Virus record (IMG/VR): IMGVR_UViG_2534681705_000018 | Span: 1-14,535 of that record | Length of the DNA: 14,535 bases | Source: a virus | Lineage: Duplodnaviria; Heunggongvirae; Uroviricota; Caudoviricetes | Direction: 5' to 3' (one strand) | Part shown: positions 79 through 14,535 of the stretch, piece after piece | How positions within the stretch are numbered: the first letter of the stretch is position 1 | Layout: every line of letters begins with the position of its first letter | The notes under the pieces: model-generated | The model's database searches: none | Seen by the model: only the letters and a program-made list of their open reading frames with translations | Told to the model about the DNA's origin: nothing | Program-made: the position numbers and the translations under genes

Positions 79-318
79 TTTTAACTCCTCTGGATAAATT
101 AAATCACAAATTTTTGTATTATAAATAACCGCATAAGCCAAATTATTTGAGATTAATAAAACATCACCAACTTCAATATCAACAAGACTTCTGTAACATG
201 TTTTACTAAATCCAATTACAAAATGAATGGACCAATATAATGATTTTTTGTCTAACACTGGAGCGTTTCCGTATTGGCAGACTGTGACTTTATCTAACCA
301 AAGATTCAATTCCCCTGT

Positions 319-684
319 TCATATTCTTATTAGTGGTTGAGCAGGGCTCAATACTCCATCAAATACTTTACCTACGTGCAAACGATTATATTTTAGTTCA
401 GGATGCTTTAGATTTAACGGGGAACTGGATAAACTGAGCCATTCCCCTATTAACCTTTCCGTTTCTGGCATTAAAGCCATCCCAGCGAGCTCAGATGAAA
501 TTAAGGGAAATATTTCTCCAAGCAATACCCATCCAGACCAGCTGCCACTCTCTTCTGCTATCGGTAACCATTTAGCACTAAATTCGGGCATTAATAATGC
601 AACATCTTCGCCATTTTCTTTCCAATTTTGAAAAGTGGTTTCAAACGTATGAGTGTTTCGATTTACTTTCCTCAGACCGAACAT
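319..684 (-). CDS. hypothetical 121-aa Trp-rich protein
   Basis: ORF-track ORF; ATG at 684 with AAGGA about 11 nt upstream; protein-like composition; no recognisable motif. Confidence 0.45.
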   Translation of the reverse strand: MFGLRKVNRNTHTFETTFQNWKENGEDVALLMPEFSAKWLPIAEESGSWSGWVLLGEIFPLISSELAGMALMPETERLIGEWLSLSSSPLNLKHPELKYNRLHVGKVFDGVLSPAQPLIRI

Positions 685-815
685 TAACTTTCATCCTTCT
701 GATCGTTTTCGAATTTGCTTTCATTTTCTTGCTCCTCATAAGGCTGATGTCGTTGTCCTTGTCGTTCATCTTGCTCAGTCAATACCCAACGTTGTGCTGT
801 AACTCATTATGAAAA

Positions 816-2426
816 CTATTTAATTCCCTCATCATTGATAAGGTTGGACATCTCTTTCAACATGAGAGTCATTGAAGCTTTCGACCAATTTAGCGGAATG
901 ATAGGGCTTGGCGCTTCATGCAAAGTTCCCGACTTGTGGATATAGTTATAGCTTTCGGGAAGTGCCATTTCAGGTACACTCCTGCCATTTGCACCAATCA
1001 TATTCTCGCCTGTTATTTGGGCCAATGATCTATTCATAAATTGCACTGAGTCATTCAAATACTCTTCCTTTCTTGATTCTTTATAAACAATTGCTGCTGA
1101 TTTTGCATACCATGAGTCAAAAAACCATTCTGCTTCTGTTGATGGAATGAAGCTCTTTTCTCTTTTCGCATGTGAATTTTGATCGGTATCGGTTTTAATA
1201 TCATTGAACCAAAAATTTGCCGACTGATAATTATCCTTCTCGTATCTTTTTATACCATACGGACCTGCTAGTTTTTTAACTATTTTTAGAACCTGCTCTT
1301 TTCTTCTGGTGTTTATCTTTGCAAGATTTGCAGGATAAATAACATTAAGTAAAGCCGCATCGGCTTCTCTGTAATGTTTATCTTTTTCCAGATAACCTGG
1401 GGATTCTCCCCCTAAATCAAGCTGTAACGTTATTCTTTCATAACCTTTATCTATGAGGTGGTTCAACCTCGTTGTTGAAAGAGGTTCATCCAGTTCATTG
1501 GCTTTAGCTTCGCGTAGTAAATCAGAGACAAAAACAGAGTCTTTCTTCGAGAGTAAGTTCGACAAACGTTCCAGTCCAGAGGTCACCAGTGCAACGGAAG
1601 ATGTGTTTAATCGGGCATCTTCTTCCCATGCTCCGGAATCTTCCATAACATAGAAATTGGCTTTATCCAGATAAGCAATCAGCAGCGCAACCGATTTTAA
1701 TCGGTCACCTTTTTGCCAATCTTCAGCGTTAATTGTATCAGTGTCGATTGCTTGTATAAGGAGATCAAGATAAAGACCTAACGCATCATTTTGTTTATGG
1801 TTCCACAGCTGCGGCTTGCCTTCTTCCTGCACATCTGCCATCACGGGGGAGTTGCTGTCAAATCGGATATGCACAACATTCATTTGCCCGGGAACTCCAT
1901 CCAGTCGTTTGGGGTTGCTAATGACGTCCTGCATTCGCTTAATCTGGTCGGGCGTAGACATATAATCCCACAGGGTGAGCAGAACCTTTTTTGCGGCTAC
2001 ACTATTTCCCTGATCTGATACTAATGCCATATAGCCCCATAAACTATCCCTCAGCCAGACAGCATCATAGTGGGTTTCTGCCGCTGTTTTGTCATCTTCG
2101 AAAGTAGAAGCAAGAATAAACGTTCCCCAGGGTTTCTCCGTCAACGTTAACTTTCGTGTGTTTTCTGTTAATGTTAGCAATCCTTGAATTTCGTCTTTGG
2201 TATAGTGGCTCTTTATTTCATTTTGTAATTTGGCTGAGTGAATCAAAAGACGATAATTAGGATACTTATCTGGATTTAACGATAAATAACTTTTATCTGT
2301 TGCTGCCCCCGTGGAATTAAGAATGTTAAATACAGATTCACTCGTCACTTCTGCCCCTGTCGCCTGGCATGTGCCGCACGAAAATATACCAGCGAGCAGA
2401 AGAGTTAATGCAGATTTCCCTTTCAT
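816..2426 (-). CDS. secreted glycoside hydrolase family 15 (glucoamylase-like) enzyme with N-terminal signal peptide
   Basis: ORF 816..2468; likely start at MKGKSALTLLLAGIFSCGTCQATG (ATG 2426; alternative ATG 2438). Matches recalled GH15 signatures: VWLRDSLWG (WxRDS), GKPQLWNHKQNDALG (GxPQ...D.AL) and SGAWEED (general-acid WEE). AT-rich gene unlike the rest of the window. Confidence 0.7.
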   Translation of the reverse strand: MKGKSALTLLLAGIFSCGTCQATGAEVTSESVFNILNSTGAATDKSYLSLNPDKYPNYRLLIHSAKLQNEIKSHYTKDEIQGLLTLTENTRKLTLTEKPWGTFILASTFEDDKTAAETHYDAVWLRDSLWGYMALVSDQGNSVAAKKVLLTLWDYMSTPDQIKRMQDVISNPKRLDGVPGQMNVVHIRFDSNSPVMADVQEEGKPQLWNHKQNDALGLYLDLLIQAIDTDTINAEDWQKGDRLKSVALLIAYLDKANFYVMEDSGAWEEDARLNTSSVALVTSGLERLSNLLSKKDSVFVSDLLREAKANELDEPLSTTRLNHLIDKGYERITLQLDLGGESPGYLEKDKHYREADAALLNVIYPANLAKINTRRKEQVLKIVKKLAGPYGIKRYEKDNYQSANFWFNDIKTDTDQNSHAKREKSFIPSTEAEWFFDSWYAKSAAIVYKESRKEEYLNDSVQFMNRSLAQITGENMIGANGRSVPEMALPESYNYIHKSGTLHEAPSPIIPLNWSKASMTLMLKEMSNLINDEGIK

Positions 2427-2734
2427 AAAATATTCCATCAATCGTTTGTTAAAAGCGTAGATAACCACTTATTTAACAACTTGAAAATAAGGTGTTTTAC
2501 CTGGGTTGTTACAAAAGGATTGCATTGCGTAAACGCTTTTTATTTACAACAAAATGGGGAAGTATTACGGCGATTGCGAAAAGTCTGAAGCGATTGAATT
2601 AAGATAATATAGAAAATCAGATACAGCAAAAATGGCAGATTGATCAGGTGAAGATAAATTGGAGCGGCGAAGGGAACAACACAACAAGCCACAAGACCAG
2701 TAATAAAGGCGCATTCGCGAGTTCTAAAATAAAT

Positions 2735-2758
2735 TCTATACACATTTCTATACACATT
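2735..2758. repeat. perfect tandem direct repeat TCTATACACATT x2
   Basis: Read directly at 2735-2746 and 2747-2758. Confidence 0.8.
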
Positions 2759-2770
2759 TATCACTCGCTT

Positions 2771-2850
2771 GGGGATTACACATCCCCTGTTAACCGTGAT
2801 CAAGCTGGTGGATGATCACGGATAAACCGATATGGGAATCCCCATATCGG
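2771..2850. promoter_or_regulatory. three consecutive perfect dyad symmetries: GGGGAT-N5-ATCCCC (2771-2787), CCGTGATCA-N10-TGATCACGG (2794-2821), CCGATATGGG-N4-CCCATATCGG (2827-2850)
   Basis: Inverted repeats read directly; non-coding; sits where composition changes from AT-rich cargo to element-like DNA. Confidence 0.6.
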
Positions 2851-2855
2851 CATCG

Positions 2856-2967
2856 CGTAGTTAATCGTAGTGGCTACCGTAGTAGCCTCCGTAGTTGAGT
2901 AGCAGGATGTAACCTGCCAGGAAGGAAATGATCGTGACTCGCCGTGACATGGCGTGATTAATCGTGA
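2856..2967. repeat. helically phased short direct repeats: CGTAGT x4 (2856, 2866, 2878, 2890) with embedded palindrome GGCTAC-cgta-GTAGCC, then CGTGA x4 at exact 10-bp spacing (2933, 2943, 2953, 2963)
   Basis: Read directly; the 10-12 bp phasing puts the motifs on one face of the helix, typical of multimeric protein-binding sites (integrase arm sites, TerS sites, iterons). Confidence 0.6.
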
Positions 2968-3000
2968 CACCAAACAAAAATCCTTACCCGTAGGCTTAAT

Positions 3001-3023
3001 GTAAGGCTTGGCTGTAGCCTTAC
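3001..3023. other. perfect 8-bp inverted repeat GTAAGGCT-N7-AGCCTTAC
   Basis: Read directly. Confidence 0.6.
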
Positions 3024-3035
3024 CGAACGCGCCGC

Positions 3036-3215
3036 TCACCGTCGCGGCCTGTCCGGTTTCCGCCACTGATACGGCCTCACATCATCATGCTGGTGGCGCT
3101 CCTGTTGCAGCACAACGGAAACAGGCGCTGAACACCTGTTAATTTTGCTTGCTGGTTGTTTGATTCCGGCAATGCTGCGGATCATCTCCAGCAAATCGGC
3201 TTCGGTGATGGTCAT
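3036..3215 (-). CDS. possible small ORF (59 aa, MTITEADLLEMIRSIAGIKQ...), unknown function
   Basis: ATG at 3215 with AAGGTG 7 nt upstream; stop at 3036-3038; not in the ORF track (under 60 aa); low support. Confidence 0.25.
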   Translation of the reverse strand: MTITEADLLEMIRSIAGIKQPASKINRCSAPVSVVLQQERHQHDDVRPYQWRKPDRPRR

Positions 3216-3245
3216 GATTTACACCTTAGGAAATCTTAGGGGGCT

Positions 3246-3518
3246 GGTTGACACTTTCCGGCTTAAGACCTTAATAAATCTTAATATCGTAGGTTGACAC
3301 ACTTGACACTTTTTCGGGAAAAACCTTAACAAAACTTAACCATCCCTGGCATTTCTAAGCATGGCAACTTGACACTTTTCGCTATTTTTTCGGCTTTTTG
3401 ACGTGGTAAATCTGGCGAAAGGCCAGTAATGGCGTGGCTTACAGCGAGGTTGACACTTTTTCGCGTTCAGAGTGTAAAGTGTCAACCTGGCAAGCTGCTC
3501 AACTTGACACTTTTTGAG
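3246..3518. repeat. array of six direct copies (one inverted) of about 14 bp, (G/C)TTGACACTTTT(T)CG
   Basis: TTGACAC at 3248, 3294, 3303, 3369, 3450, 3504 and inverted GTGTCAA at 3479; non-coding, directly 3' of the HTH gene at 3520-4047. Confidence 0.7.
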
Positions 3519-3519
3519 G

Positions 3520-4047
3520 TCATTGATGGCCTGATTTTTCCCACTCAGCCAGGGCGTTTAGTCCGGCTTCACTCCAGTTATCCAGCTCATCGGGACAATC
3601 ACCTGCAACATAGCAGAGCTCACAACGCAGCATACGAATTGCCAGCCTGGCATTTTCCCGAAAATCATACTGCTCAAAGTAATATTGCCCAGCATAATCC
3701 TCAAGGCAGATAGCACCATCATCAAGAAATTGCACTTCACAGCATAATTCCCCGGCTGCATCCTGCACACGCTGCTGTATGTCATCGTCCGTTACTGGTG
3801 CAGGGATTTTACCGTCTCTGGCCTTAACTGCTTTCCAGAACTCGCCCCACGTCATTTCCAGCGTTCTCTCTGGCCACATTTCAGAAACGGGGTTTTTTCC
3901 CTGTGCTGGTGGGCTGTTCCGCTGCTCTGTCGCTTCCACATCAATTTTTTTGCCAGACATGATCACTTCGCCTTTCTCGATCCAGTCGTAAACTGTCTGG
4001 CGGCTTACGCCTTTGTGTTTGGCATATTCTGCCTTGCTCATCAGCAT
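3520..4047 (-). CDS. HTH DNA-binding protein, 175 aa; N-terminus resembles lambda Nu1/terminase-small-subunit winged HTH; Cys-rich C-terminus; candidate packaging-redirecting or regulatory protein
   Basis: N-terminal KAEYAKHKGVSRQTVYDWIEKGE parallels recalled Nu1 KKQLADIFGASIRTIQNWQEQGMPV; C-terminal RCELCYVAGDC; ATG 4047 (or 4041) follows the upstream stop by 6 nt with GGGTGAG Shine-Dalgarno. Confidence 0.6.
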   Translation of the reverse strand: MLMSKAEYAKHKGVSRQTVYDWIEKGEVIMSGKKIDVEATEQRNSPPAQGKNPVSEMWPERTLEMTWGEFWKAVKARDGKIPAPVTDDDIQQRVQDAAGELCCEVQFLDDGAICLEDYAGQYYFEQYDFRENARLAIRMLRCELCYVAGDCPDELDNWSEAGLNALAEWEKSGHQ

Positions 4048-4053
4048 TATGAC

Positions 4054-4725
4054 TCACCCTTCTTTTTCCAGTTGAGCCAGCCGCCCGGATATTTCTTCCA
4101 GTTTTTCCAGGGCTGGCTTGCAGGCCGCATCAATAACATCCCGGACCATTCCGGCAAGCTGCTCTTCTGCTGTCGGCGTTGTTACTTCCACACCCGATGG
4201 TTTCCCTCCCTTATCCCATACACCCAGCGGTACGAGGGCAACGTGATCGATAAGAAATGGCGTACCCTCAATGACAAAATTGTCCTCGCCCATTACATCA
4301 GGAACTTCTGCCCCACCGGACGCACCACAAAACACAACCGACGGGCTGGTGGATACCTCCCCCCGGGCTTTCTGGATGTAATCGATGATTTCCTGCCCGT
4401 AAATCCGGCATACGCCCCACACCTCGTCATCGCGAATATACGGCAACATAACGGTGCCAATAATGCGCGACCGTTCGCCCACGTCTTCAATGGTTTTGCC
4501 TTCGGGATGGTCGATAATGACGGGTACTCCGGCGCAACGTTCCAGGAACTGCGGATTGAGATAAGTTTGCGGTGAACGCCAGACAAATTCTTTTTCTTCG
4601 GCGCGGTAGGCCATTCCGGTTCCTGTGATACGCAGGTTAACCAGCCACATGTTGGAGAACTGATAAGGCGACGGTAGCTGACCGTCCCGAATCTGCTTCG
4701 CCGCCTCAATTTCTGTTAAAAGCAT
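4054..4725 (-). CDS. hypothetical 223-aa protein with coiled-coil C-terminus
   Basis: ORF-track ORF; same operon and strand as neighbours; no motif recognised. Confidence 0.55.
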   Translation of the reverse strand: MLLTEIEAAKQIRDGQLPSPYQFSNMWLVNLRITGTGMAYRAEEKEFVWRSPQTYLNPQFLERCAGVPVIIDHPEGKTIEDVGERSRIIGTVMLPYIRDDEVWGVCRIYGQEIIDYIQKARGEVSTSPSVVFCGASGGAEVPDVMGEDNFVIEGTPFLIDHVALVPLGVWDKGGKPSGVEVTTPTAEEQLAGMVRDVIDAACKPALEKLEEISGRLAQLEKEG

Positions 4726-4789
4726 AATGTTATCCGGTTATAAGCAATAAGCCCCGCCAAATCCGGCAGGGCTGAACTCAGCACGTTTT

Positions 4790-5368
4790 TCATGCCCCCG
4801 CGAGGCTTGCAGTGTTAATTTTGACCAGGCGACGGGGAGGGATTTTGAAGGCGTTCAGCCAGACGTTCGGATCGCCCTGATATTCAGTAATACGACGACC
4901 AGCTTCATCCATTCTTACGGTTTTACCCAAATGGCCCGGCGTGTTTTCCACGGCCCACTGAGCACTTTCCTGAGCAGCCTTGTAAATCTGATCTTCCAGC
5001 ACCGCCAGCGTTGCAGAATCTGAAACGGAACGAATATCCACATCACTGAATTTTTTAGCCAGCTTCTGTGCGCCAATTAATGCACGCTTGCGGTAATCCA
5101 TCGACTTTTCACCAGCAAACGGGGCCGGAGCTCGACGGCCCATATTGCTGTATGCGGAATCCGCTTTAGCCTGGGCTTCTGCCAGTGAGGATTCATCTTC
5201 GACTGACGCGACGATGTTTTGATTAGCGTTATCCTCTTTTATGAAATCCTGTGCGGGGATCGCATTCAGAATTTCGATAATCTCCTGCGGAGTGCTGCCC
5301 TGCGACTCTGACAGAGCGTTAACCACCTCCATCAGTTTTAATCGCAAATCTTCTTTGCTTGCTGGCAT
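4790..5368 (-). CDS. hypothetical 192-aa protein
   Basis: ORF 4790..5377 opens on GTG; in-frame ATG at 5368 has a better Shine-Dalgarno (GAGAGGTGG). Confidence 0.55.
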   Translation of the reverse strand: MPASKEDLRLKLMEVVNALSESQGSTPQEIIEILNAIPAQDFIKEDNANQNIVASVEDESSLAEAQAKADSAYSNMGRRAPAPFAGEKSMDYRKRALIGAQKLAKKFSDVDIRSVSDSATLAVLEDQIYKAAQESAQWAVENTPGHLGKTVRMDEAGRRITEYQGDPNVWLNAFKIPPRRLVKINTASLAGA

Positions 5369-5407
5369 TTTTACCACCTCTCTTTTTTCACCAAAAAATC
5401 ACGACCA

Positions 5408-5587
5408 TCAGGCCGGACGTTCTACGGGATAAAGCGCCCGCTGCATTAAACGCCGGGCGACCTCATGAATGCTCGGAGCAATCCCCAGCGGAGAATTGCG
5501 GCGTTCCTCGTCCTGGATGCGCTGTAATGCTTCAATCTGATCACGAGCGAGTAAAACGGGTTTCACGCTGGCTTTTCTCATAGTCAT
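5408..5587 (-). CDS. small 59-aa protein (MTMRKASVKPVLLARDQIEALQRI...), possible small DNA-binding regulator
   Basis: ATG at 5587 with AGGAGA Shine-Dalgarno; first gene after the tandem terminators; assignment is tentative. Confidence 0.45.
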   Translation of the reverse strand: MTMRKASVKPVLLARDQIEALQRIQDEERRNSPLGIAPSIHEVARRLMQRALYPVERPA

Positions 5588-5605
5588 ATCTCCTGAACAA
5601 AACAA

Positions 5606-5700
5606 TGATTATGATTGCACAAACTGAAATGACGATCTACATCGTTGCAATTTATGAAACGATAACGCATGATGATCGCGTTCTTCCCATTGACTTCAAT
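5606..5700 (-). promoter_or_regulatory. promoter/operator region for the 5587->3520 operon with repeated ACGAT/ATCGT dyads and a CATAAT -10-like hexamer
   Basis: Between terminators and the first gene of the next operon; dyads GACGATctacATCGT and AACGC-N8-GCGTT read directly. Confidence 0.4.
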
Positions 5701-5704
5701 CACC

Positions 5705-5745
5705 TGAAAAACAAAGCCCGCAACACTTCTGGCTGCGGGCTTTTT
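5705..5745 (-). terminator. second, bidirectional intrinsic terminator
   Basis: 8-bp stem AGCCCGCA/TGCGGGCT (5715-5722, 5734-5741), 11-nt loop, T-runs on both sides. Confidence 0.6.
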
Positions 5746-5753
5746 ACTGGCAC

Positions 5754-5777
5754 AAAAAAGCCGGGAAAAATCCCGGC
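5754..5777 (-). terminator. Rho-independent terminator right after the PerC-like gene
   Basis: 7-bp GC stem GCCGGGA/TCCCGGC with 4-nt loop, followed on the minus strand by a 6-T run. Confidence 0.7.
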
Positions 5778-5782
5778 CTCCG

Positions 5783-6070
5783 TCACTGACTGCAATTTTT
5801 CGATCCAGGGTATTTCCTGAATGCCTTACCATTGGGCTGATGTAATCCCATCCCGGCATGTGCCCGGCTGATGGTTTCGCGCATCTCCCCGAAATTATCC
5901 TGCCGTGCTGGTGGGCGTGCTGCCTTGCGGATACATTCCGCGCGACGTTTTGCCGCCTGTTCCCGTGCCTTGTCATCATTCGCCAGCATGATGACCTCAG
6001 CCCACCGCGCCGCCGCTCTCCGGTACAGACCACGCGCTTCCAGTGCTTCCGCTTTGCTGTCGTGAATCAT
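5783..6070 (-). CDS. PerC/Pch-family transcriptional activator-like protein (95 aa)
   Basis: AEALEARGLYRRAAARWAEVIM matches the recalled PerC-family core (AEELE.KGLWRRAAARWLEVM); ATGA start/stop overlap with the upstream gene. Confidence 0.55.
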   Translation of the reverse strand: MIHDSKAEALEARGLYRRAAARWAEVIMLANDDKAREQAAKRRAECIRKAARPPARQDNFGEMRETISRAHAGMGLHQPNGKAFRKYPGSKNCSQ

Positions 6071-6609
6071 GCGCCTGTTTTCTCCCTGGCTGCCCGGCGC
6101 TGACGTTTGCGCTTCTCATTCAGCGCTACCAGCCGCGTTTCTGCGTCCTGTTGTTCCTGTGGTGTCACCTCGCCGCACGGCTGGCCTTTCAGGTCGTAGC
6201 GTACCCCACCAGCCATTAAGGCGCGGTAATAGCGCGGACACTGCGCATAAGATGCCAGCGTCGCACGTAATGCCCCTGGCCCGAATGCCAGCCCCCTGAC
6301 GGCGAGATCCTGCATCAGGTCGTCGAATATCCCCACCTTAAGCGGCTTCGGTGCTTCCCGGCTGAATAATTCAGGCCACAACTCAGTGAGGCGGTTAACG
6401 CGCCTGCGGTTTTTGCGCTGGCGCTTGGTCATATGCCGCCACGGTGTCGCCCCTGTGGGCTTCTGCTGCGCTTTCTGGTTACCGGGCATCACTTTATGCG
6501 CCGACGTGGTTTTATCCTGCTCCTGTGCCGCCTGCGTCGTTTTCTGCGGCGTGCCATAAATGCCTTTCGGTTTTCTGTTAATGGTCAGCTTAGTCATGCT
6601 TTGCCCCAT
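6067..6609 (-). CDS. ProQ/FinO-domain RNA-binding protein with a basic N-terminal extension
   Basis: LTELWPELFSREAPKPLKVGIFDDLMQDL ... YYRALMAGGVRYDLKGQPCGEVTPQEQQDAETRL parallels recalled ProQ N-terminal domain ([22 protein letters not shown] ... RVDLDGNPCGEL); likely true start ATG 6597. Confidence 0.65.
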   Translation of the reverse strand: MGQSMTKLTINRKPKGIYGTPQKTTQAAQEQDKTTSAHKVMPGNQKAQQKPTGATPWRHMTKRQRKNRRRVNRLTELWPELFSREAPKPLKVGIFDDLMQDLAVRGLAFGPGALRATLASYAQCPRYYRALMAGGVRYDLKGQPCGEVTPQEQQDAETRLVALNEKRKRQRRAAREKTGA

Positions 6610-6937
6610 CGTTTTTACTGATTATTTCATGCCCGGAACTTTCATCTACCGGATACCACGCAAATGATCCAGGTTCATCAGAAAGAATGAATTTTGTGTT
6701 TGGCAAATACATGCATTCGTAAAAACCATCTTCCTGATGATACGGTGCCATTCCATACTCACCAGTAAGAATCGGTAATATTTCAGAATAAATTTCTGAA
6801 TCACCAGAATAAAACACATCACAAATCGCCCATGCTGCAATCGGACTATACCAGTCGTTGCCATTATCATTCCTGAATTTTGCCCACCAACCCTGAACCG
6901 CTGGCGAAATATTTTTGGGTATAGCTTCAAGAAACAT
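6590..6937 (-). CDS. hypothetical 115-aa Trp/Tyr-rich protein, first gene of the ProQ/PerC operon
   Basis: ATG 6937 with strong AAGGGGG Shine-Dalgarno; 3' end overlaps ProQ-like start. Confidence 0.55.
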   Translation of the reverse strand: MFLEAIPKNISPAVQGWWAKFRNDNGNDWYSPIAAWAICDVFYSGDSEIYSEILPILTGEYGMAPYHQEDGFYECMYLPNTKFILSDEPGSFAWYPVDESSGHEIISKNDGAKHD

Positions 6938-6987
6938 ACAACCCCCTTTGCAACTCTATTTCTATAATTTCGTGATAAAAATTCCAA

Positions 6988-7290
6988 TTATTCACACTAT
7001 TCCATTTTGATTGTGAACAGTCGTGAATAGTTAGTGAACAGTTTTTTAATAACTGTTCACTATGTTTTTTAGTTTAAAATCATATGGTTATTTTGTTTCA
7101 GTGAACAGTTGAACAGTTACCCCCTATAGAATTTAATTTGCAGTGAAAATGATTCACTGTTACAAGTTACAATGCGTTTTAAAAGTTTTAGCCGAAACTG
7201 TTCACGGCGTTCATTTCGTCGATGAATCCAGTAATGACGCAGCTTTTAGAGGTGAACACTACTGTTCACCACTGTTCACCACTGTTCACT
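6988..7290. repeat. replication-origin-like iteron region: about 10 direct and inverted TGTTCAC(C) copies, an AT-rich spacer, and a perfect tandem ACTGTTCACC x3
   Basis: Direct copies at 7054, 7199, 7263, 7273, 7283; inverted at 7013, 7034, 7101, 7252; palindrome TAGTGAACAGTT/AACTGTTCACTA (7032-7062). TGTTCACC is the P4 alpha-protein type I iteron as I recall; location just 3' of the primase gene. Confidence 0.65.
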
Positions 7291-9058
7291 TTTCATGGAT
7301 TTTTGGCACAGCGGGTAACCATTCATTAGCACTGTCAGCCAGCTCCATGTTGTAGCGCATTCCGACATTGGTCTTTGCCTTCTTATACTCAGCCCCATAT
7401 TCTTTCATCACTTTTGGGAAATCTTTGCCAAAATTAGTTAGATTTAATGGCTTATCGAAACCATAAGCATCCATATATGCAAGATATGCATGGTAAAGAT
7501 AAATTCGAGGGGCTCTTGGATATATATTCAGGTTTCCCATGAACATTCCTACAGCTTCACCAAGTTCGACAATATGGTTACAAAAAGCATATAGCGGATC
7601 AGTATGGCGTTTTACTTCCATTGCTTCTTCACCATCACGTTGCTCGAGCAGTAATGTTCTTGCTTTTTCGGGATCTGAAAAATTTACCAACAGCCTACGG
7701 ACTATTACCGGAATTTCCGCTGCAATTTTTTTGGGTAAACATGTGTCCTTGTTTTCTTCCGCTATCGGATTATTGAACTGAAAAATAACCCTACGGCGTG
7801 AAATACCTCCCGCTCTTTCTGTAAAAACCATCGGTTTATTATTTGTTATCAAAACAACTGAGCGTAAGACAGTGGTGTATCTTTTTTCATATTTCGGGTT
7901 AATTTGCAGAGGATCCCCACCTGTTATAGCTTTAATACCATTACCTTCACCAAAATATTTAGGTTGGTCCGGTAAAATAATCAGACTTTTACCAACTAGT
8001 TGCTCACGTCCACCAGCATCATCTAACGCTTTCATATCACTGCCTGCGGTGTTCTGCTCACCCGCCAACATTCTGGCAATTTGAGTAAACATACTTTTAC
8101 CACTTCCACCTTCGCCAGTTGCTTCAATGAATAATTGCCAGTCGTAGCGATTAGCCAAAACCATAAACAGAGCAGCACATATCCGCTTCATCTTTGATGA
8201 ATCGTATCCTGCTGCATGTGACAGCCAACGATGAAAATGGGGCGCATGGTCATGAATATTTTCACCAGGCGCAGGTGGCGTATAATAAATTCCATTATGC
8301 GAAGTGATCCAGTGCTCTGGTGAATGAGGTAAAAATCTACCACTTGTTATGTCATAAACTCCATTTTCAAAAGGTATTATGGTGTCACTCTGTTCTCTCA
8401 TTACGGGTACAGATATTTTTAAAGCATCAACCGCATTACTAATTGCCCGCTTACTGAAATTTGTCTTGTTTTTTTCGTAAATTGATACCATTTTACGACT
8501 CAACTCCATATCAGATATTTTTTCCCACACTCCAGAACAGTATGCATAAGCAAAATTGTTACCAGGGTGAACAGCTATTTCCTCAAAGCATTCAGCCAAA
8601 AGTGAAGCTCGCTCGTTATCCGCCATTCTGGAAAGAGAGATTTTGTGTTTTTTCTCAGTCCTTCCTGACAGAATATCCCCGCGCTCTGCCTGTTCGCGGA
8701 TCCGTTGCAGGTAATCGCGCCAGTTCTCCGGTTCCCGGTCGGTGATGCCTTTGTATAATTTCGCCTCCTGTACGCCAGCCAGCGCCAGCTTTTCAGCGAT
8801 AGCATTGATCTGGATTGGTTCGATCTCCCCCGCGAGATAGACACGCGCAAAGCGGCGTTTCTCGTCAATAATGCGGATATTCGCCAGGTCTGCCAGTTGC
8901 TTTGGCCCCAGGTAAACAGGTGGTACGTTATCGCCGTGTTTTCGTCCTTCGCTTTCAATCCAGTGTTGAGCATGGGAGTAAGCGTCCGTCCCGGCAAAAA
9001 TGATTACCTCGGTGAATTTATCCTTCGGCTGATATTTTAAATTCGGTGCGTTTTTCAC
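7286..9058 (-). CDS. P4-family primase / D5-like SF3 helicase replication protein (590 aa)
   Basis: Walker A GEGGSGKS in mid-protein; overall organisation of phage/plasmid primase family; GTG start at 9058 overlaps upstream stop (GTGA). Confidence 0.8.
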   Translation of the reverse strand: MKNAPNLKYQPKDKFTEVIIFAGTDAYSHAQHWIESEGRKHGDNVPPVYLGPKQLADLANIRIIDEKRRFARVYLAGEIEPIQINAIAEKLALAGVQEAKLYKGITDREPENWRDYLQRIREQAERGDILSGRTEKKHKISLSRMADNERASLLAECFEEIAVHPGNNFAYAYCSGVWEKISDMELSRKMVSIYEKNKTNFSKRAISNAVDALKISVPVMREQSDTIIPFENGVYDITSGRFLPHSPEHWITSHNGIYYTPPAPGENIHDHAPHFHRWLSHAAGYDSSKMKRICAALFMVLANRYDWQLFIEATGEGGSGKSMFTQIARMLAGEQNTAGSDMKALDDAGGREQLVGKSLIILPDQPKYFGEGNGIKAITGGDPLQINPKYEKRYTTVLRSVVLITNNKPMVFTERAGGISRRRVIFQFNNPIAEENKDTCLPKKIAAEIPVIVRRLLVNFSDPEKARTLLLEQRDGEEAMEVKRHTDPLYAFCNHIVELGEAVGMFMGNLNIYPRAPRIYLYHAYLAYMDAYGFDKPLNLTNFGKDFPKVMKEYGAEYKKAKTNVGMRYNMELADSANEWLPAVPKIHEK

Positions 9059-9345
9059 TTCTTACCTCCCGCAACCAACATTGCCCGGATTTTTTTAATA
9101 TTCGTGGCTGCACGTCTCGCCACCGCCTGTTGTTTGTTTTCCACCAGAATAAAATCACGCTCAAACTGACGGCGCGGCATTACGCAGTCATATTCGTAAG
9201 CCTCACGGCGGTAGGTGATATTGCCTGGCGTAACGTGACGAATAACCACTCGTCCCCCACGTCTGGTGTCGCGGTAAATATCTCCGTGTCTGATTTCAGG
9301 CCGAGCGGGGCCGCTGGCAGTAAAGCCAGAATTTTTCTTTTTCAT
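9055..9345 (-). CDS. hypothetical 96-aa basic protein, coupled to the primase gene
   Basis: ATG 9345 with AGGAAA upstream; stop overlaps primase start. Confidence 0.5.
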   Translation of the reverse strand: MKKKNSGFTASGPARPEIRHGDIYRDTRRGGRVVIRHVTPGNITYRREAYEYDCVMPRRQFERDFILVENKQQAVARRAATNIKKIRAMLVAGGKK

Positions 9346-9349
9346 GGTT

Positions 9350-9550
9350 TTATTTTCCTGTCAGCAGTTCCGGTTTTATTTCCGCACGAATACAGAGTTC
9401 AGAAAAAAATTCAGGAGAACCAACAATCTCATTACTTTTCAGTCGGCATTGTGATTTCACTTTTCCTTTATCCAGGTAAACCAGTATGCGTCCGGTGAAA
9501 TCATCTGGCGCACTCAGGGTAATTGTCATTGTTGCTTGCTGATTATCCAT
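9350..9550 (-). CDS. small 66-aa protein with one copy of an FTGxxLVxxxxGxV motif; paralog of the gene at 9543-9908
   Basis: PDDFTGRILVYLDKGKV; start overlaps upstream stop by 8 nt. Confidence 0.5.
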   Translation of the reverse strand: MDNQQATMTITLSAPDDFTGRILVYLDKGKVKSQCRLKSNEIVGSPEFFSELCIRAEIKPELLTGK

Positions 9551-9908
9551 GATTCACCCCCTGAATAACCTGATAACCGCAACTGGTCAGCAATTCGATA
9601 AATTCCGGCAATGTGCCGAAACAGTAATCATCACGCAGACGTTCGCGGGATACTTCAACGCCGTTTTCGTAGTGACTCACCATGCGTCCGGTAAAATGCA
9701 GATCATCATCGTGATGGCACGTTAACGGCTTAATCAGTCGCGCACGTTCTGCCAGTTCCAGCAATGCTTCAACGCTTCCGGCAATTGCACCATCCGGCAG
9801 GTTGTAATTACGCACTATGCGCCCGTTCTCCACATGGACCAGTAGCTGCCCGGTAAATTTCTCGTCAAACTGAATGCGGTTAAGGTCGGTAAGTGACAGG
9901 TTAATCAT
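9543..9908 (-). CDS. 121-aa protein carrying two tandem copies of the same small domain
   Basis: FDEKFTGQLLVHVENGRIV and LHFTGRMVSHYENGVEV; ATG 9908 overlaps upstream stop. Confidence 0.55.
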   Translation of the reverse strand: MINLSLTDLNRIQFDEKFTGQLLVHVENGRIVRNYNLPDGAIAGSVEALLELAERARLIKPLTCHHDDDLHFTGRMVSHYENGVEVSRERLRDDYCFGTLPEFIELLTSCGYQVIQGVNHG

Positions 9909-10104
9909 GGCGTACCTCCTGACGAATACGGGCGGCGAATACCATCACGCAGCCATCAGGAGATTGCTGGCGTGCTTCCTGTTCGCTGGTGGCCTCGATG
10001 TGAATCACGCGCGGTTGTGCCGTGCTCAGAGCGATAAAACGCCAGATGTATTTATTCAGGTTGTGCGAGTCCCGCCCTTGCGGGTGTGTGGTATGATTTC
10101 TCAT
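9901..10104 (-). CDS. small 67-aa protein, first gene of the leftward operon; tentatively Icd/Kil-like
   Basis: ATG 10104 with GAGGT Shine-Dalgarno; IWRFIALSTAQ...VMVFAARIRQEV resembles my recollection of Icd-like proteins (unverified); in frame with the C-terminus of the 402-aa track ORF. Confidence 0.4.
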   Translation of the reverse strand: MRNHTTHPQGRDSHNLNKYIWRFIALSTAQPRVIHIEATSEQEARQQSPDGCVMVFAARIRQEVRHD

Positions 10105-10297
10105 AGCTACCTCGATAATCTTGCTATCGTTGGTGGTTAGAAGCTCTGCGAGTGGTAACGACACTTGCGGGGCTTTGCCTTTAAGGTGCAAGTCACCTTT
10201 GAGGGTTATGCTACTTTTAGGTGACTTGCACTTCAAGCCTTTTTTTATTTTTTTTTCTACGTATACTGAACGCCACCTAACAGTAAGGAGGCCAGTA
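10105..10297. promoter_or_regulatory. divergent promoter/operator region with 13-bp inverted repeat AGGTGCAAGTCACCT (10184-10198) / AGGTGACTTGCAC (10219-10231) and a T-rich tract (10241-10257)
   Basis: Read directly; lies between the leftward operon and a rightward gene with AAGGAGG Shine-Dalgarno; candidate -35/-10 (TTGAAG-N17-TAGCAT) on the minus strand overlaps the repeat. Confidence 0.55.
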
Positions 10298-10477
10298 ATG
10301 CCAACGGGTACAACCAACAACAAATCACAACAAAAAACGGCTAGAATCCCTCTAGAAGTTTTAAGCGAAATGAATTTGGTCAAAGAGGAAAACGAAACAG
10401 ACGCGCAGTTTATCGTTACAGCCATGCGTGGCGAGATCAAACGCCGCCAGCGCCGCAAGGCCAAAGAACAGGAGTAA
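10298..10477 (+). CDS. small 59-aa basic protein, possibly ribbon-helix-helix-like; candidate element repressor
   Basis: Near-consensus Shine-Dalgarno AAGGAGG 6 nt before ATG 10298; strand-helix-helix pattern (ARIPLEV / LSEMNLVKEEN / AQFIVTAMRGEIKRR); only clear plus-strand gene in the element. Confidence 0.5.
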   Translation: MPTGTTNNKSQQKTARIPLEVLSEMNLVKEENETDAQFIVTAMRGEIKRRQRRKAKEQE

Positions 10478-10534
10478 CCATCACCAGCGCCGTGGTGTGA
10501 GGAACTACGGTGCATCGTTTTACAGGGCAGCGCC

Positions 10535-10714
10535 ATGACCAACAAAGAATCAACCAAAACACCATCACCAACTCGTAAGAGACGACGCAAAAATATAGCG
10601 CATGAACATGAATCAGAAAGATTCGCACCTTGTTCGTTTGCTCTTGAGAAATTCCTTAAAGAGCACAGGAAAAAGCTCTCGTTGCAAACCTTGGAACGAA
10701 CCAAATCTGACTGA
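10535..10714 (+). CDS. possible 59-aa Lys/Arg-rich ORF downstream of the RHH-like gene
   Basis: ATG 10535, weak Shine-Dalgarno; followed by a plus-strand terminator; not in ORF track. Confidence 0.3.
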   Translation: MTNKESTKTPSPTRKRRRKNIAHEHESERFAPCSFALEKFLKEHRKKLSLQTLERTKSD

Positions 10715-11109
10715 TCACATTGCCCACCAGCCGCAAATGTGGCATTGTTGGTGATGCGTTCAAGTATGTAGCTTTTCCACTGGCGGCTCTCTGCGGTCGC
10801 CTTTGTTTTATCCAGAACGAAATCAGACATCAGATTGATCAGCACCTGGCGACCTGACAAAATCGCATCAGTCGCGCCACCAGCAAAATTTTTTGCTTTC
10901 CGGACAGCGTGGCCAACGATATTTTGCAGCAAAATATTCTGCATTTCTGGCGTGCTGTGGCGACGGTGATCAGCGCCTTCACATTGAACGAACTTGTCGC
11001 TAAAATTCACCCACATAGCAAACATCGCGGTGCTGTAGGTAATTCGTTCACAAAGGCGCTCCGGCAACGGGGCGCTTTCTCTTTTTGTAACGGTCAGAGC
11101 GTTACACAT
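10715..11109 (-). CDS. N-terminal part of the 402-aa track ORF (9901..11109); plausible gene of unknown function whose true 3' end is unresolved
   Basis: ATG 11109 overlaps the AntA stop (ATGTGTAA); first ~130 residues protein-like, but the middle of the 402-aa frame looks non-coding and is antisense to the plus-strand module. Confidence 0.3.
10782..10809 (+). terminator. candidate Rho-independent terminator for the rightward transcript
   Basis: GGCGGC-tctctgc-GGTCGCC stem-loop followed by TTTGTTTT. Confidence 0.4.
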
Positions 11110-11950
11110 GGCTGTTTTCCTCCATGCGACGGGCTAACCAACGCTGCGAAAGACGAATTAATTCAGCCTTCCGCTGGTGGTAGTCCTGGCCTAACTCAAT
11201 CAGCGTGATATTGCTCTGCTCAAGGTAAGAAAGGTGCTCAAGCTGCAACGTGCTCATGTGGTCGCGTGGTTCGCCTGTAATGCCGTTCGCCAGTGCCCAC
11301 TGTTTTGCAGTCATGCCACCCAGCACGATACGCGCCAGCATGTTCGCTTCCGTGGTGTAGTGGTGCTGGAGTGTGTTTTTACCCAGTTCAGCCCGGTACG
11401 CCTCCAGCGCGGCACACATTGGCTTAAAGTAGCTGGCAACTGTGATACGGGCTTTCAGTTCCCGGCGTAACGCTGCGGAACGCACTGGCGCTACCTTGTG
11501 TAGCTCCTCCTCGCATTTGATAAAGTACTGGCGAACGGCGCGGCCCTGTTCGGTACGTTCGACCATCGCCAGTTCTTTCGCCATGTTCGTGGAGATCAAA
11601 TAGTCTTCACTGCGACGATCACCGCCGCGCTTTGTTGTCCAATCAAAATCAAACTGTTCAATATTTACACTTTGGTTCCCCCGTTTCGGGGAATCAAAGT
11701 ACAAATTTTCTACAACTTCAAAATCCACGCCATTTTTAAATCCGTACTCATCAATACGTCCTTTAATCCAGGTAGTGAAATCACGGCCTACCCCGAGCGC
11801 CTTATGCAACGCTCTGGCGCTAACAATATTGGTTTCACGCCCGCCAATAACGCCGGAAATAACCGGGATAATTTCGCCAAAATTTTGCAGATTCTGGTTT
11901 TCAGGCCGAACGAAGCCCTGCCCCTGTACGGGCGTTTTTCGCAGTTTCAT
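11102..11950 (-). CDS. phage antirepressor, AntA/AntB-type N-terminal domain (282 aa)
   Basis: IPVISGVIGGRETNIVSARALHKALGVGRDFTTWIKGRIDEYGF matches recalled AntA domain pattern; AGGAG Shine-Dalgarno before ATG 11950. Confidence 0.7.
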   Translation of the reverse strand: MKLRKTPVQGQGFVRPENQNLQNFGEIIPVISGVIGGRETNIVSARALHKALGVGRDFTTWIKGRIDEYGFKNGVDFEVVENLYFDSPKRGNQSVNIEQFDFDWTTKRGGDRRSEDYLISTNMAKELAMVERTEQGRAVRQYFIKCEEELHKVAPVRSAALRRELKARITVASYFKPMCAALEAYRAELGKNTLQHHYTTEANMLARIVLGGMTAKQWALANGITGEPRDHMSTLQLEHLSYLEQSNITLIELGQDYHQRKAELIRLSQRWLARRMEENSHV

Positions 11951-12028
11951 AAAAACTCCTGCTATCGAATTAAGTTACTTTTATTTGCTGGTGGATAGCT
12001 GGGGGCTTCTGGCCCCGTAGCCATTTAA

Positions 12029-12226
12029 TCAGGTAGCTGTTCCGCGTGATTCAGCAATACGCTGATTAATCCACTCGTCAATTTCACTCTCAACGAAAGC
12101 AATCGCTCGCGAGCCAATTTTAACTGATGCAGGAAATTTACCTTGCCCCATAAGGCGATAAATCCATGCCTTGCTATATCCAGTTCTACGCTGAACTTCC
12201 GTTAAACGAATAAGCGTATTTGACAT
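12029..12226 (-). CDS. alpA: AlpA/Vis-family phage transcriptional regulator or excisionase-like HTH protein (65 aa)
   Basis: IRLTEVQRRTGYSKAWIYRLMGQGKFPASVKIGSRAIAFVESEIDEWI is the typical AlpA-family winged HTH; GAGGT Shine-Dalgarno; family-level assignment only. Confidence 0.8.
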   Translation of the reverse strand: MSNTLIRLTEVQRRTGYSKAWIYRLMGQGKFPASVKIGSRAIAFVESEIDEWINQRIAESRGTAT

Positions 12227-12294
12227 ATATTTACCTCATAACGTCTACTCAATTTGACGAGGTAATCATGGCACAGAAATAACGAATATTTTCA

Positions 12295-12444
12295 TACCCT
12301 CAGGCCTAATGGTAATCGGGAATATTTTTACCCTAAGGGTAATAGTAAAATTGATGGGAAAGCATACAAAAATACCCTAAGGGTGAGGTCTGATTACCCT
12401 TAGGGTGAGACGCGAACAAAACATGAGATACCACTAGGGTAAGG
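12295..12444. promoter_or_regulatory. array of five copies of palindromic motif TACCCT(A/T)AGGGT(A/G) immediately upstream of alpA
   Basis: Copies at 12295 (degenerate), 12328-12343, 12373-12385, 12394-12410, 12429-12444; each an inverted repeat TTACCC-N3-GGGTAA. Confidence 0.7.
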
Positions 12445-12446
12445 CT

Positions 12447-13193
12447 TCATCGTTTGATAGGACAGGCGACAAGCTCAATAGATGCGGCCTGTCGGGAGGT
12501 AAAACCTCGTTTTTCAAGCTCAGTAGTAATCGCGCCCTGGTTTCCCCTGGTGGCGCGCTCATTTTCCGGATCGTAATTGGCCCACTCTCTGTTTCTAATC
12601 TCGATAGCCAGATACAATGGGTCATCATCTCTGTATTTATTTAATAGAATTGGACGTTCGCTTTCGAGTTTGCGGATTTGCTCTTTAAGTGAAGAAATTT
12701 CCGCAAGTAACACTTCAATATTCTGTTCATCATCCAGAAACTCATTATCAACCACATCAGAAGTTGGTAGAGTTATTTCACTTAATGGTAAAAATAAATC
12801 AATGCCTATTTTCTCTGCAAATTCTTTAAGTTCTGCACGACGAAACCCATGCTTATCAAAAAGGCTTGCCGACCATCTTACATCACAATTTTGAAAAGGT
12901 GCGAATAATGCTATAGGCACACTATTTCTTTCACGAATAACTTCCAGGAGGTCTGTTAAAGTAGGGGCACTATTATATTGATTGGAAAGATCGACATATG
13001 TTGATTCAATAGTACCGGCAATACCTTGCTTAACCCATTCAGGAAGTTCAATCGCACATTCTTTCAAGTAAAGAAAATCTGCAATCTGTGAATAACTAAC
13101 ATGCGGTTGATGTAATTGAATACGAGTTATCAACTCCCTCAGGCTAATAAACTCCCACTCCCTTGCTTTAAGCACTTCGGCAATATCAATCAT
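12447..13193 (-). CDS. hypothetical 248-aa protein between integrase and alpA, coiled-coil near C-terminus
   Basis: Track ORF 12447..13274 opens on GTG; ATG 13193 has GAGGTG Shine-Dalgarno 7 nt upstream; no motif recognised. Confidence 0.55.
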   Translation of the reverse strand: MIDIAEVLKAREWEFISLRELITRIQLHQPHVSYSQIADFLYLKECAIELPEWVKQGIAGTIESTYVDLSNQYNSAPTLTDLLEVIRERNSVPIALFAPFQNCDVRWSASLFDKHGFRRAELKEFAEKIGIDLFLPLSEITLPTSDVVDNEFLDDEQNIEVLLAEISSLKEQIRKLESERPILLNKYRDDDPLYLAIEIRNREWANYDPENERATRGNQGAITTELEKRGFTSRQAASIELVACPIKR

Positions 13194-13320
13194 ACGCACA
13201 CCTCGGCGTCCTCTGTAGTGGTGGCTGTGCCAGCCCGCAGAGGTGTACGGGTTTTCAGGAGCGACCCTAGACACAGCCTTTTCTTAATCGCTCAAAGTCT
13301 ACTACTGTATACTCAACCAG

Positions 13321-14535
13321 TCACCCGCATTTTCCGAACTCACCATGCACCACATTTCCGCCATGCTCGAGCGAATCCATATAGTCGGCATACCACTGGA
13401 GCATCTCCCGGCGACCATCCAGATATTGCGCATGGTTGTATGTGCCACGAATTGAGTTTTTATCGACGTGTGCGAGCTGTGTCTCTATCCACGCGGTGTT
13501 ATAGCCCTGCTCATGCAAAATGGTGCTCATGGTGTGCCGGAATCCATGACCAGTAACGCGCCCGGCATAGCCGATACGACGAATGAGCACATTCATCGCC
13601 ATTTCACTCATTGGCTTACTGTGGTGAATACGACCGGGGAAAATAAACTGATACTGGCCTGTCATGTTTTTTAACTGCTCCAGTATTTTTATCGCCTGTT
13701 CTGGTAATGGCACACAATGCGGACGGCGCATCTTCATTCGTTCTTTAGGCACTTCCCACAAACGATTATCAAAATCGATCTCCAGCCATTCTGCCTGCCG
13801 TAATTCCCCGGGTCTGACACCTGTCAGAATTAATAGCCGCATTGCCAGTTTGACGATCTGGCTTCCGGTGTACGTATTAAAAACGCGGAAAAATTCCGGC
13901 AGTTCGTCGGCTTTCAAATAGGCGTAATGCTCTTTTTTATGTGGAGCAAATGCGCTCACCAGGTCAGGGGCTGGATTATATTCGGCGCGTCCGGTGATGA
14001 TTGCGTACCGGAACACCTCGCCGCATCGCTGGCGAACCTTACGCAATTTTTCAGTCGCACCACGGTCATTAAGACGGGAAAGAACCGCCAGCAATTCCAT
14101 CGGCTTAATTTCTGCGATCGGCCTACCGCCAATGTACGGAAAAACATCTTTTTCAAACGTCTCGATCATTTCCTCGGCGTATGACGATGACCACCTGTCG
14201 ATCCGCTTTTCGTACCATTCGCGAGCAATACCCTCAAAAGTATTGCCAAATTTGCTCGCCTGTTCTCGCTTTTGGGCTTTTCTGGCCTCACTTGGATTTA
14301 TACCACCAGCAAGAAGCCTTTTAGCCTCATCCCTTGCCGCCCTGGCATCAGACAGAGACACATCAGGGTATACCCCCAACGACAACATTTTGGGCTTTCC
14401 TGCAAACCTGTAGCGCAGTCGCCACCCTTTCGAACCGTTCGGCTCAATGAGCAACGAAAGCCCGTTACCGTCATTGAGTGTATAAGCCTTTTCTTTCGGC
14501 TTCGCGCGCCTGATGGCAAGGTCTGAAAGCAGCAT
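13321..14535 (-). CDS. int: P4-type tyrosine integrase (site-specific recombinase), 404 aa, start at or just beyond the right edge
   Basis: N-terminal arm-binding-like region (LSDLAIRRAKPKEKAYTLNDGNGLSLLIEPNGSKGWRLRYRF); C-terminal catalytic boxes HGFRHT and RGTYNHAQY (tyrosine nucleophile). Confidence 0.9.
   Translation of the reverse strand: MLLSDLAIRRAKPKEKAYTLNDGNGLSLLIEPNGSKGWRLRYRFAGKPKMLSLGVYPDVSLSDARAARDEAKRLLAGGINPSEARKAQKREQASKFGNTFEGIAREWYEKRIDRWSSSYAEEMIETFEKDVFPYIGGRPIAEIKPMELLAVLSRLNDRGATEKLRKVRQRCGEVFRYAIITGRAEYNPAPDLVSAFAPHKKEHYAYLKADELPEFFRVFNTYTGSQIVKLAMRLLILTGVRPGELRQAEWLEIDFDNRLWEVPKERMKMRRPHCVPLPEQAIKILEQLKNMTGQYQFIFPGRIHHSKPMSEMAMNVLIRRIGYAGRVTGHGFRHTMSTILHEQGYNTAWIETQLAHVDKNSIRGTYNHAQYLDGRREMLQWYADYMDSLEHGGNVVHGEFGKCG

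Follow-up and report, generated by a model that had tools for sequence, protein, structure and literature searches.

A candidate Arc-like repressor with three putative operator sites, encoded antisense to a long open reading frame of a P4-like satellite island

The immI region of phage P22 holds two repressors of the ribbon-helix-helix (RHH) class, Mnt and Arc, the divergent promoters Pant and Pmnt, and the sar antisense RNA. In phage P1, translation of icd is tied to transcription of the genes downstream. In the satellite phage P4, the eta gene extends over the CI immunity RNA and an internal constitutive promoter; it is coupled to the alpA homologue that precedes it and, when translated from the late promoter, prevents termination (PMC10111431). 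Unlike the staphylococcal pathogenicity islands (SaPIs), Gram-negative phage-inducible chromosomal islands (PICIs) undergo induction through AlpA, which in EcCICFT073 activates expression of the gene after alpA; the founding paper on these islands calls the existence of a repressor "unclear" (PMC6092414). A later survey describes P4-like immunity RNAs in the corresponding zone of some islands and does not mention a protein regulator (PMC10111431). Here we analyse such an element, a stretch of 14,535 nucleotides (positions 1 to 14,535 of IMG/VR record IMGVR_UViG_2534681705_000018; "the window" below), which is a Gram-negative PICI and P4-like satellite with a layout common to these islands and phage P4. 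An earlier note, made from the letters of the window, had described positions 10105-10810 as a divergent repressor-like module with an inverted-repeat operator. Comparison with related loci suggests that the first gene of this module, ORF1, encodes an Arc-like repressor acting at three sites in front of the leftward replication operon. The earlier note had missed that the entire module is placed antisense within a leftward open reading frame (ORF) of 402 codons. The genes concerned are:

10298-10477, plus strand: ORF1, 59 amino acids, YlcI/YnfO family, proposed immunity repressor.
10285-10291, plus strand: Shine-Dalgarno (SD) sequence of ORF1, AAGGAGG, read from the sequence, 6 nt before the ATG.
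9901-11109, minus strand: long leftward ORF, 402 amino acids, eta-like.
9901-10104, minus strand: nested Icd-like (P4 Kil-like) gene, 67 amino acids, with SD GAGGT at 10113-10109 and ATG at 10104.

The 13-bp inverted repeat of the earlier note was confirmed. Its arms (10181-10198 and 10219-10236) are 89% complementary across a 20-nt spacer and contain a perfect 13-bp core (10186-10198 / 10219-10231), whereas none of 200 Markov simulations of the 1.3-kb region produced a perfect inverted repeat (spacer 3-60 nt) longer than 11 bp. The repeat is made of two of the three copies of an 11-bp site, GTG-N5-CAC. The idea of a protein operator was thus supported, but not that of a single inverted repeat: there are three sites, and in other variants the first two are often direct repeats. 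The sites and the predicted promoters around them are:

10186-10196: putative operator O1, GTGCAAGTCAC, just downstream of the leftward -10 element and start; offset from the ORF1 ATG -115.
10221-10231: putative operator O2, GTGACTTGCAC, an inverted copy of O1, in the spacer of the leftward promoter; offset -80 in 18 of 18 variants.
10266-10276: putative operator O3, CTGAACGCCAC, a degenerate copy that immediately follows the rightward -10 element; offset -35 in all variants.
10208-10236, minus strand: predicted leftward promoter P_left, with -35 TTGAAG (10236-10231), a 17-nt spacer and -10 TAGCAT (10213-10208).
10262-10267, plus strand: predicted rightward -10 element, TATACT, preceded by a T-rich tract at 10240-10258.

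We compared the regions between the ORF1 start and the Icd-like start in E. coli relatives, in a Klebsiella satellite phage record and in 18 loci located through the Icd-like domain, with one genome per species. Counted back from the end of the ORF1 ATG, the sites start at 35 nt (O3), 80 nt (O2) and 101-115 nt (O1), and across 18 variants from at least seven genera the sites keep fixed offsets (-115/-103, -80 and -35). The 11-mer recurs at the same offsets in 13 variants, with a core specific to each variant. Read rightward, the common plan consists of the Icd-like start and its SD, a GC-rich hairpin, O1, O2, GTCAAG or TTCAAG, the T-rich tract, TATACT, O3, the SD and the ORF1 ATG. A P_left of the architecture TTGAC(G/A)-17/18-TAnnnT, matching the consensus at 8-10 of 12 positions, was found in 11 of 12 variants, with O2 within its spacer and O1 after its -10 element; a promoter scanner independently called it in variant L006 (TTGACG-17-TAAATT). 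On the rightward side, a TATACT, TATAGT or TATATT hexamer stands at the same offset in 12 variants. P_left is predicted to drive the Icd-like gene and the replication genes. The placement of O1 and O2 in the variants supports the earlier suggestion that the repeat overlies the likely promoter of the leftward replication operon, where it behaves as a putative protein operator; O3 is proposed to be an autoregulation site.

The core of the sites follows two residues of ORF1, those at -4 and -2 relative to the invariant Arg16. The equivalent strand positions of Arc read bases. The residue pairs (-4, -2) and the corresponding site cores are:

Q, T (the window): GTGCAAGTCAC.
Q, N (L012): GTGAATCGCAC.
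Q, N (L011): GTGAATAGCAC.
R, D (L003 and L014): GTGTCGGACAC.
S, T (L002 and L013): GTGTAAGACAC.
A, K (L001 and L008): GTGTGGCCCAC.

As an out-of-sample test, five new loci were picked solely by their ORF1 variant, and repeated sites were found at the fixed offsets in all five. In both loci that share strand residues with an earlier variant, all three sites fitted. The Salmonella locus L031, which has the strand residues of ORF1, carries identical O1 and O2 sites, though the flanking and intervening DNA differs, and its O3, CTGAACACCAC, is one change away from that of the window; L034 combines the residues of the Pectobacterium locus L012 with the same three sites. Two new residue pairs came with two new site cores.

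The small proteins are not orphans. ORF1 belongs to the NCBIfam family YlcI/YnfO (NF041551), which it matches over residues 9-50 with 62.9 bits against a cut-off of 30 (E 2e-17), and the Prokaryotic Genome Annotation Pipeline gives its homologues the same name. It also matches phrog_949, and no family beyond YlcI/YnfO and two functionally uncharacterised PHROGs was assigned to it. When a 32-sequence profile was compared with P22 Arc by hhalign, the DNA-reading strand and helix A aligned (P=8e-4; segments KSQQKTARIPLEVLSEMNLVKEEN / KMPQFNLRWPREVLDLVRKVAEEN), the predicted DNA-reading strand of ORF1 being at about residues 12-17 (QKTARI). Weak Pfam matches among family members were to the RHH families PSK_trans_fac and CB_ParB_C. 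The AlphaFold2 model of ORF1 (pLDDT 80), computed for the monomer alone, contains both RHH helices; residues 8-16 are modelled as a helix with low confidence (pLDDT 55-69), which is what a strand formed only on dimerization would be expected to give. ORF1 displays the RHH pattern, a predicted polar-alternating N-terminal strand and two helices within about 45 residues, and on comparative evidence its sites have the character of an RHH operator, short, repeated and with a specificity set by the strand. No match was obtained with Foldseek for the ORF1 model against the PDB, with PADLOC for ORF1, ORF2, the long ORF and two downstream genes, or with tblastn for ORF1 against 50,697 phage records; a sequence profile search of the PDB gave nothing meaningful and a Pfam search with ORF1 alone gave no family. 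We found no functional study in the literature on YlcI/YnfO/DUF3950 or on PICIs together with ribbon-helix-helix proteins. The Arc alignment and the RHH pattern bear out the RHH-like protein of the earlier note, and the near-consensus SD that it reported is present, its start codon having been placed 1 nt off. These data support ORF1 as an RHH-like (Arc/Mnt-like) candidate repressor. The family includes its name-giving member, ylcI of E. coli K-12 (L028, NC_000913.3 574000-582000, 6252-6840), whose product has the same N-terminal pattern (...TRNIRFPNQMIEQINIALEQ...). This gene and nohD diverge, and the 390 bp between them contain the DLP12 cos site. Motifs of the CACGTCAA type also occur in the DNA upstream of K-12 ylcI.

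ORF1 might bind these sites without locking replication, as a partition/centromere-type or packaging-related RHH protein or as an activator of the rightward unit. The position of K-12 ylcI beside a cos site and the weak Pfam match to a centromere-binding ParB C-terminal RHH domain would fit such a function, and P22 Mnt both represses and activates. We nevertheless consider this unlikely. Across variants the sites lie over core promoter elements of the Icd-like/replication operon, and the module has the position of the P4 immunity determinant. No lambda cosN was found in the window with up to two mismatches allowed, and a cos-related reading was rejected.

The segment 10105-10297, which holds the repeat called intergenic in the earlier note, separates ORF1 from the Icd-like gene but is not simply intergenic, for the 402-aa leftward ORF is open across it. 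This ORF runs antisense across ORF2, ORF1 and the promoter/operator region, and its C-terminus is the Icd-like protein (NF033153, 71.7 bits), which is read in the same frame and can be aligned with P4 kil. Its ATG overlaps the stop of the AntA-like gene (ATGTGTAA), with the same 8-nt overlap in L006-L009. The window has no stop in this frame and 7-26 in the other five; the corresponding counts are 0 versus 7-31 in 12 long-ORF loci and 0 versus 3-9 for P4 eta. In simulations, no stop-free frame was obtained in 2000 trials per locus for the 12 non-P4 loci, and the fraction for P4 eta was 0.012. Mosaic versions of 402-503 aa, in which alleles have been replaced or segments inserted, keep the frame open, and it is still open in EcCICFT073, where a deletion fused the N-terminus of the AntA-like protein in frame to the long ORF. 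Changes per codon position are even in the first 130 codons (10:7:6 and 16:12:8), compared with 8:9:27 in the Icd-like part and 18:9:32 in the next gene. A stop-free frame together with this flat profile indicates that the frame is selected for translatability and not for its product. The flat profile also led us to reject the first 130 codons as a protein domain, and the one widely conserved "motif" in the long ORF, KTKA, corresponds to the rightward terminator read as its reverse complement. In Escherichia, Klebsiella, Intestinirhabdus, Superficieibacter, Yersinia, Hafnia and P4, the long ORF and Icd share a frame. Loci in which it is open in a different frame are L014, L015, L017, L023, L024 and L027; it spans the whole Icd-like gene and ends about 175 nt past its stop in five of them, and ends within that gene in L027.

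Conversely, the true gene could be the 402-aa leftward "Icd-like / Bro-network" protein, with ORF1 and ORF2 as shadow ORFs and the repeat as a feature of RNA or of recombination. In many genomes the long ORF carries a protein annotation, its frame is strongly stop-free, the frame arithmetic makes the wobble positions of both strands coincide, a relation that favours shadow ORFs, and P4 eta has been taken as the gene of a Bro-network protein (PMC10111431). This appears improbable to us, since ORF1 has a consensus SD, its family also exists without a long antisense ORF (K-12 ylcI, L012, L031 and L034), and it is most variable at the two strand positions that track the operator core, whereas the first 130 codons of the long ORF lack third-position bias and its lone conserved motif belongs to the terminator opposite.

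The inverted repeat is very unlikely to work as an RNA hairpin, whether leader structure, attenuator or terminator, instead of as DNA bound by a protein. Its 13-bp arms and 20-nt loop could fold in either transcript, and a true conserved RNA hairpin lies nearby. However, in L001, L003, L012, L014, L017, L034 and L035, O1 and O2 are direct repeats at the same offsets and cannot pair, which excludes an RNA hairpin as their common function; moreover, the third copy lies 45 bp off, at the other promoter, and the sites coincide with the promoter spacer and start positions. The nearby hairpin is a separate feature:

10140-10176, plus strand: conserved RNA hairpin with a U-rich tail to about 10186.

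In the alignment of this hairpin, 98.2% of cells are paired with 6 compensatory pairs, a level reached in 0 of 500 shuffles. Since 25 of 168 cells are G.U on the plus strand (A.C on the minus strand) and the plus-strand fold is stabler in all variants, it looks like a one-way terminator for an RNA antisense to the Icd-like leader. The scanner called no promoter to the left of it, where there is just an extended -10-like TGgTATGAT (10089-10097) in E. coli variants, and without a convincing promoter the antisense RNA stays a guess. An 88-aa ORF (9874-10140, plus strand) lies antisense to the Icd-like gene, codon opposite codon, and ends 4 nt before the hairpin; its end varies among E. coli variants and we judged it to be a shadow ORF.

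The remainder of the rightward unit comprises the following features:

10535-10714, plus strand: ORF2, 59-aa basic protein.
10487-10523, plus strand: hairpin of -18.8 kcal/mol with a short U run, located between ORF1 and ORF2 and called in L006 as well.
10782-10811, plus strand: intrinsic terminator of the rightward unit, hairpin 10782-10801 followed by TTTGTTTT.

The second basic ORF and the terminator of the earlier note are both present. The terminator is conserved from Escherichia to Yersinia and Hafnia (GGCGGCC-N6-GGCCGCC-TTTTGTTTT). The hairpin at 10487-10523 is possibly a partial terminator, in which case expression of ORF2 may be partial or conditional. ORF2 has a conserved core, ERFAPCxFxLEKFLKE, and two predicted helices. 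It matches phrog_21027 (E 3e-15), a PHROG of unknown function, and gave no match against Pfam, NCBIfam, PADLOC or toxin/defence families. Structure prediction, which returned the two RHH helices for ORF1, gave for ORF2 two helices (pLDDT 71) too generic for a structure search. Its 31 clusters are all from Escherichia, it does not accompany the ORF1 homologues of Klebsiella, Pectobacterium, Yersinia and others, its codon-position bias is weak (24:23:33), and variants with a frameshifted C-terminus exist. The toxin-antitoxin alternative of the earlier note, with ORF1 as an RHH antitoxin autoregulating through the repeat and ORF2 as a small toxin, fails on this restriction of ORF2 to Escherichia while ORF1 homologues elsewhere stand alone, on the want of any toxin family match, on the tolerated C-terminal frameshifts, on an ORF1 without a long C-terminal toxin-binding tail and on the location of two of the three sites at the neighbour's promoter and not at that of ORF1, and we regard it as scarcely credible.

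We think it probable, though well short of certain, that the locus is explained by an ORF1 repressor, its three operators and a bypass through the translated long ORF. The rightward promoter would yield the ORF1 repressor, which most likely binds the three GTG-N5-CAC sites. As O2 lies in the spacer of P_left and O1 over its start region, binding would shut off the Icd-like and replication genes in the quiescent island; at O3, just after the rightward -10 element, the repressor would cap its own synthesis. The differing matched pairs of strand residues and site cores carried by islands would then constitute immunity types. On induction, transcripts from the AlpA-dependent upstream promoter would be translated through the 402-aa ORF, coupled to the preceding stop. 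About 1 kb of RNA, antisense to the repressor unit, would thus stay covered by ribosomes; this would prevent Rho-dependent termination, and the lock would be bypassed in the manner of P4 eta, ORF1 replacing the P4 CI RNA in its position. The name "master switch" given to the module in the earlier note goes further than these data; by analogy with P4, induction probably goes round the lock from the AlpA-dependent promoter upstream.

Several observations weigh against this explanation. P_left of the window itself matches the consensus at 8 of 12 positions only, the rightward promoter has no convincing -35 element, and O3 agrees with O2 at only 6 of 11 positions. The long ORF is absent in four Pectobacterium loci (4 of the 23 loci with an Icd motif, among 28 examined), is in a different frame from Icd in the six Pectobacterium/Samsonia loci given above, and is absent or interrupted in 4 of the 5 out-of-sample loci; translation through it thus cannot be essential to every such module. 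The analysis points to no agent that would inactivate the ORF1 repressor, if there is one. Binding and repression by ORF1, the involvement of Rho and the bypass are inferred from what could be observed directly, namely the sequence features, the family membership, the fixed-offset sites, the covariation of sites and protein and the selected open frame.

Two further RNA features were found in the leftward operon and upstream of it:

13210-13277, minus strand: int-alpA RNA (Rfam RF02996), 47 bits (gathering score 35.8), flanked by the integrase and by a 275-aa ORF that lies upstream of alpA.
10978-11088, plus strand: candidate antisense small RNA (sRNA), about 75 nt long, facing codons 8-32 of the long ORF.

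The window (14.5 kb) is 95-97% identical to E. coli chromosomal islands. In annotated relatives the leftward order is integrase, hypothetical protein, AlpA-type helix-turn-helix regulator, AntA/AntB-like, Icd-like, small genes, DUF4222, primase, ProQ/FinO, PerC and head-related genes. ORF1 and ORF2 are the sole plus-strand genes of these elements, bearing out the claim of a single rightward unit. The leftward operon comprises alpA, the AntA-like gene, the long ORF with its nested Icd-like gene, small genes, DUF4222 and primase. An Rfam scan of the window at the gathering score revealed nothing besides the int-alpA RNA, and a permissive scan (E<=10) of 9800-11200 gave chance-level matches alone, with no C4/isrK. 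The candidate sRNA has a promoter TTCACA-17-TAAAAT (10978-11006, 10 of 12 consensus positions) and a strong terminator at 11053-11078 with a T run to 11088. Its three alleles differ in their 5' halves and share the terminator and a strong -10 element in the same place (TATAAT in relatives, TGaTATAAT in EcCICFT073); no Rfam family matched it. A search of a phage collection with the Icd-like protein returned one matching record, the Klebsiella satellite vB_KppS-Ant. Genera with the divergent pair of YlcI-like and Icd-like genes are Escherichia, Klebsiella, Intestinirhabdus, Superficieibacter, Pectobacterium, Yersinia and Salmonella. The same module is present in the model island EcCICFT073 (L030, E. 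coli CFT073, NC_004431.1 1374000-1385300, 5526-7053), where it comprises ylcI, an Icd-like gene, an ORF2-like gene and a 428-aa long ORF; the last is probably the "ORF3" that was fused to a reporter in the published AlpA work. The module can therefore be tested directly in that island.

A broader proposal is that a maintenance repressor does exist in Gram-negative islands, namely a hypervariable RHH protein of the Arc type whose matched operators define immunity types and whose gene is encoded antisense in a translated spacer, an ORF selected for nothing but the lack of stops, that AlpA-driven ribosomes override this lock and pass over the repressor gene, and that one or two cis-antisense RNAs act as extra locks; taken jointly, these claims are possible but, in our estimate, rather doubtful. 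ORF1 is in any case a candidate for the role of a repressor, which had been presumed missing from Gram-negative satellites. If it is the replication lock, it would explain the silence of islands that have no CI-type RNA, and immunity groups between islands would become predictable from sequence. The locus would also offer a clean natural case of a gene lying antisense within an ORF selected only for translatability. The parts are of known kinds: P22 immI has an RHH repressor with operators, and P4 a long ORF in which a Kil/Icd-like gene is nested. The combination of a protein determinant in the position of P4 CI, antisense in a translated ORF, with immunity-type allelic pairs appears to be new in the literature that we searched.

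Among known systems, the Stl/Str pair of SaPIs, put forward in the earlier note, shares the divergent layout with a candidate maintenance repressor facing the satellite replication operon (PMC6092414). As that note had also stated, the proteins are unrelated; here the only family matches of ORF1 and ORF2 were to YlcI/YnfO and PHROGs, and nothing points to derepression by a helper protein. The lambdoid YlcI/YnfO (DUF3950) proteins are of the same NCBIfam family as ORF1 and have its N-terminal pattern, but their genes lie beside cos, divergent from the small terminase gene, and have no known Icd-like neighbour or long antisense ORF. As in immI of P1 and P7 (c4 RNA, icd, ant), an Icd-family gene is the first to be translated in the controlled operon and an Ant-family gene is present in the region; unlike there, no c4-type RNA was found, the Ant-like gene lies upstream and the candidate regulator is a protein.

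The P4 immunity region, which comprises P_LE, the CI RNA, eta with kil nested in it and the Rho-dependent t_imm, resembles the locus more closely, with a syntenic operon (alpA/vis-like gene, long ORF with nested Kil/Icd-like gene, primase). In both, the start of the long ORF falls on the stop of the gene before it, to which it is coupled; the ORF begins upstream of an internal promoter (predicted here in 11 variants), spans this promoter and the immunity determinant, and contains a nested short gene with its own start codon. P4 eta has 214 aa, and kil, its C-terminal 65 codons, is alignable with the Icd-like protein. The determinant itself differs: in P4 it is the CI RNA, made from the same strand and acting via seqA/seqC, whereas here it would be an RHH protein encoded on the opposite strand with DNA operators, and no C4/isrK covariance model matched. 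Control is exerted at termination in P4 and predicted at transcription initiation here. P22 immI differs from the locus in its single symmetric operator, compared with three 11-bp sites, and in the operon controlled, which is that of the antirepressor and not replication; ORF1, in addition, is embedded antisense in a translated ORF, and its homology is limited to the RHH core. With P22 immI the locus shares a small RHH repressor gene, in this case a candidate, divergent from the operon to be repressed, an operator over back-to-back promoters, small antisense RNAs nearby (sar in P22, candidates here) and a direct sequence resemblance of ORF1 to Arc in strand and helix A. Given that the module lies antisense within a selectively open leftward ORF, its closest parallels are therefore the P4 immunity region, with eta and kil, and P22 immI, and not Stl/Str.

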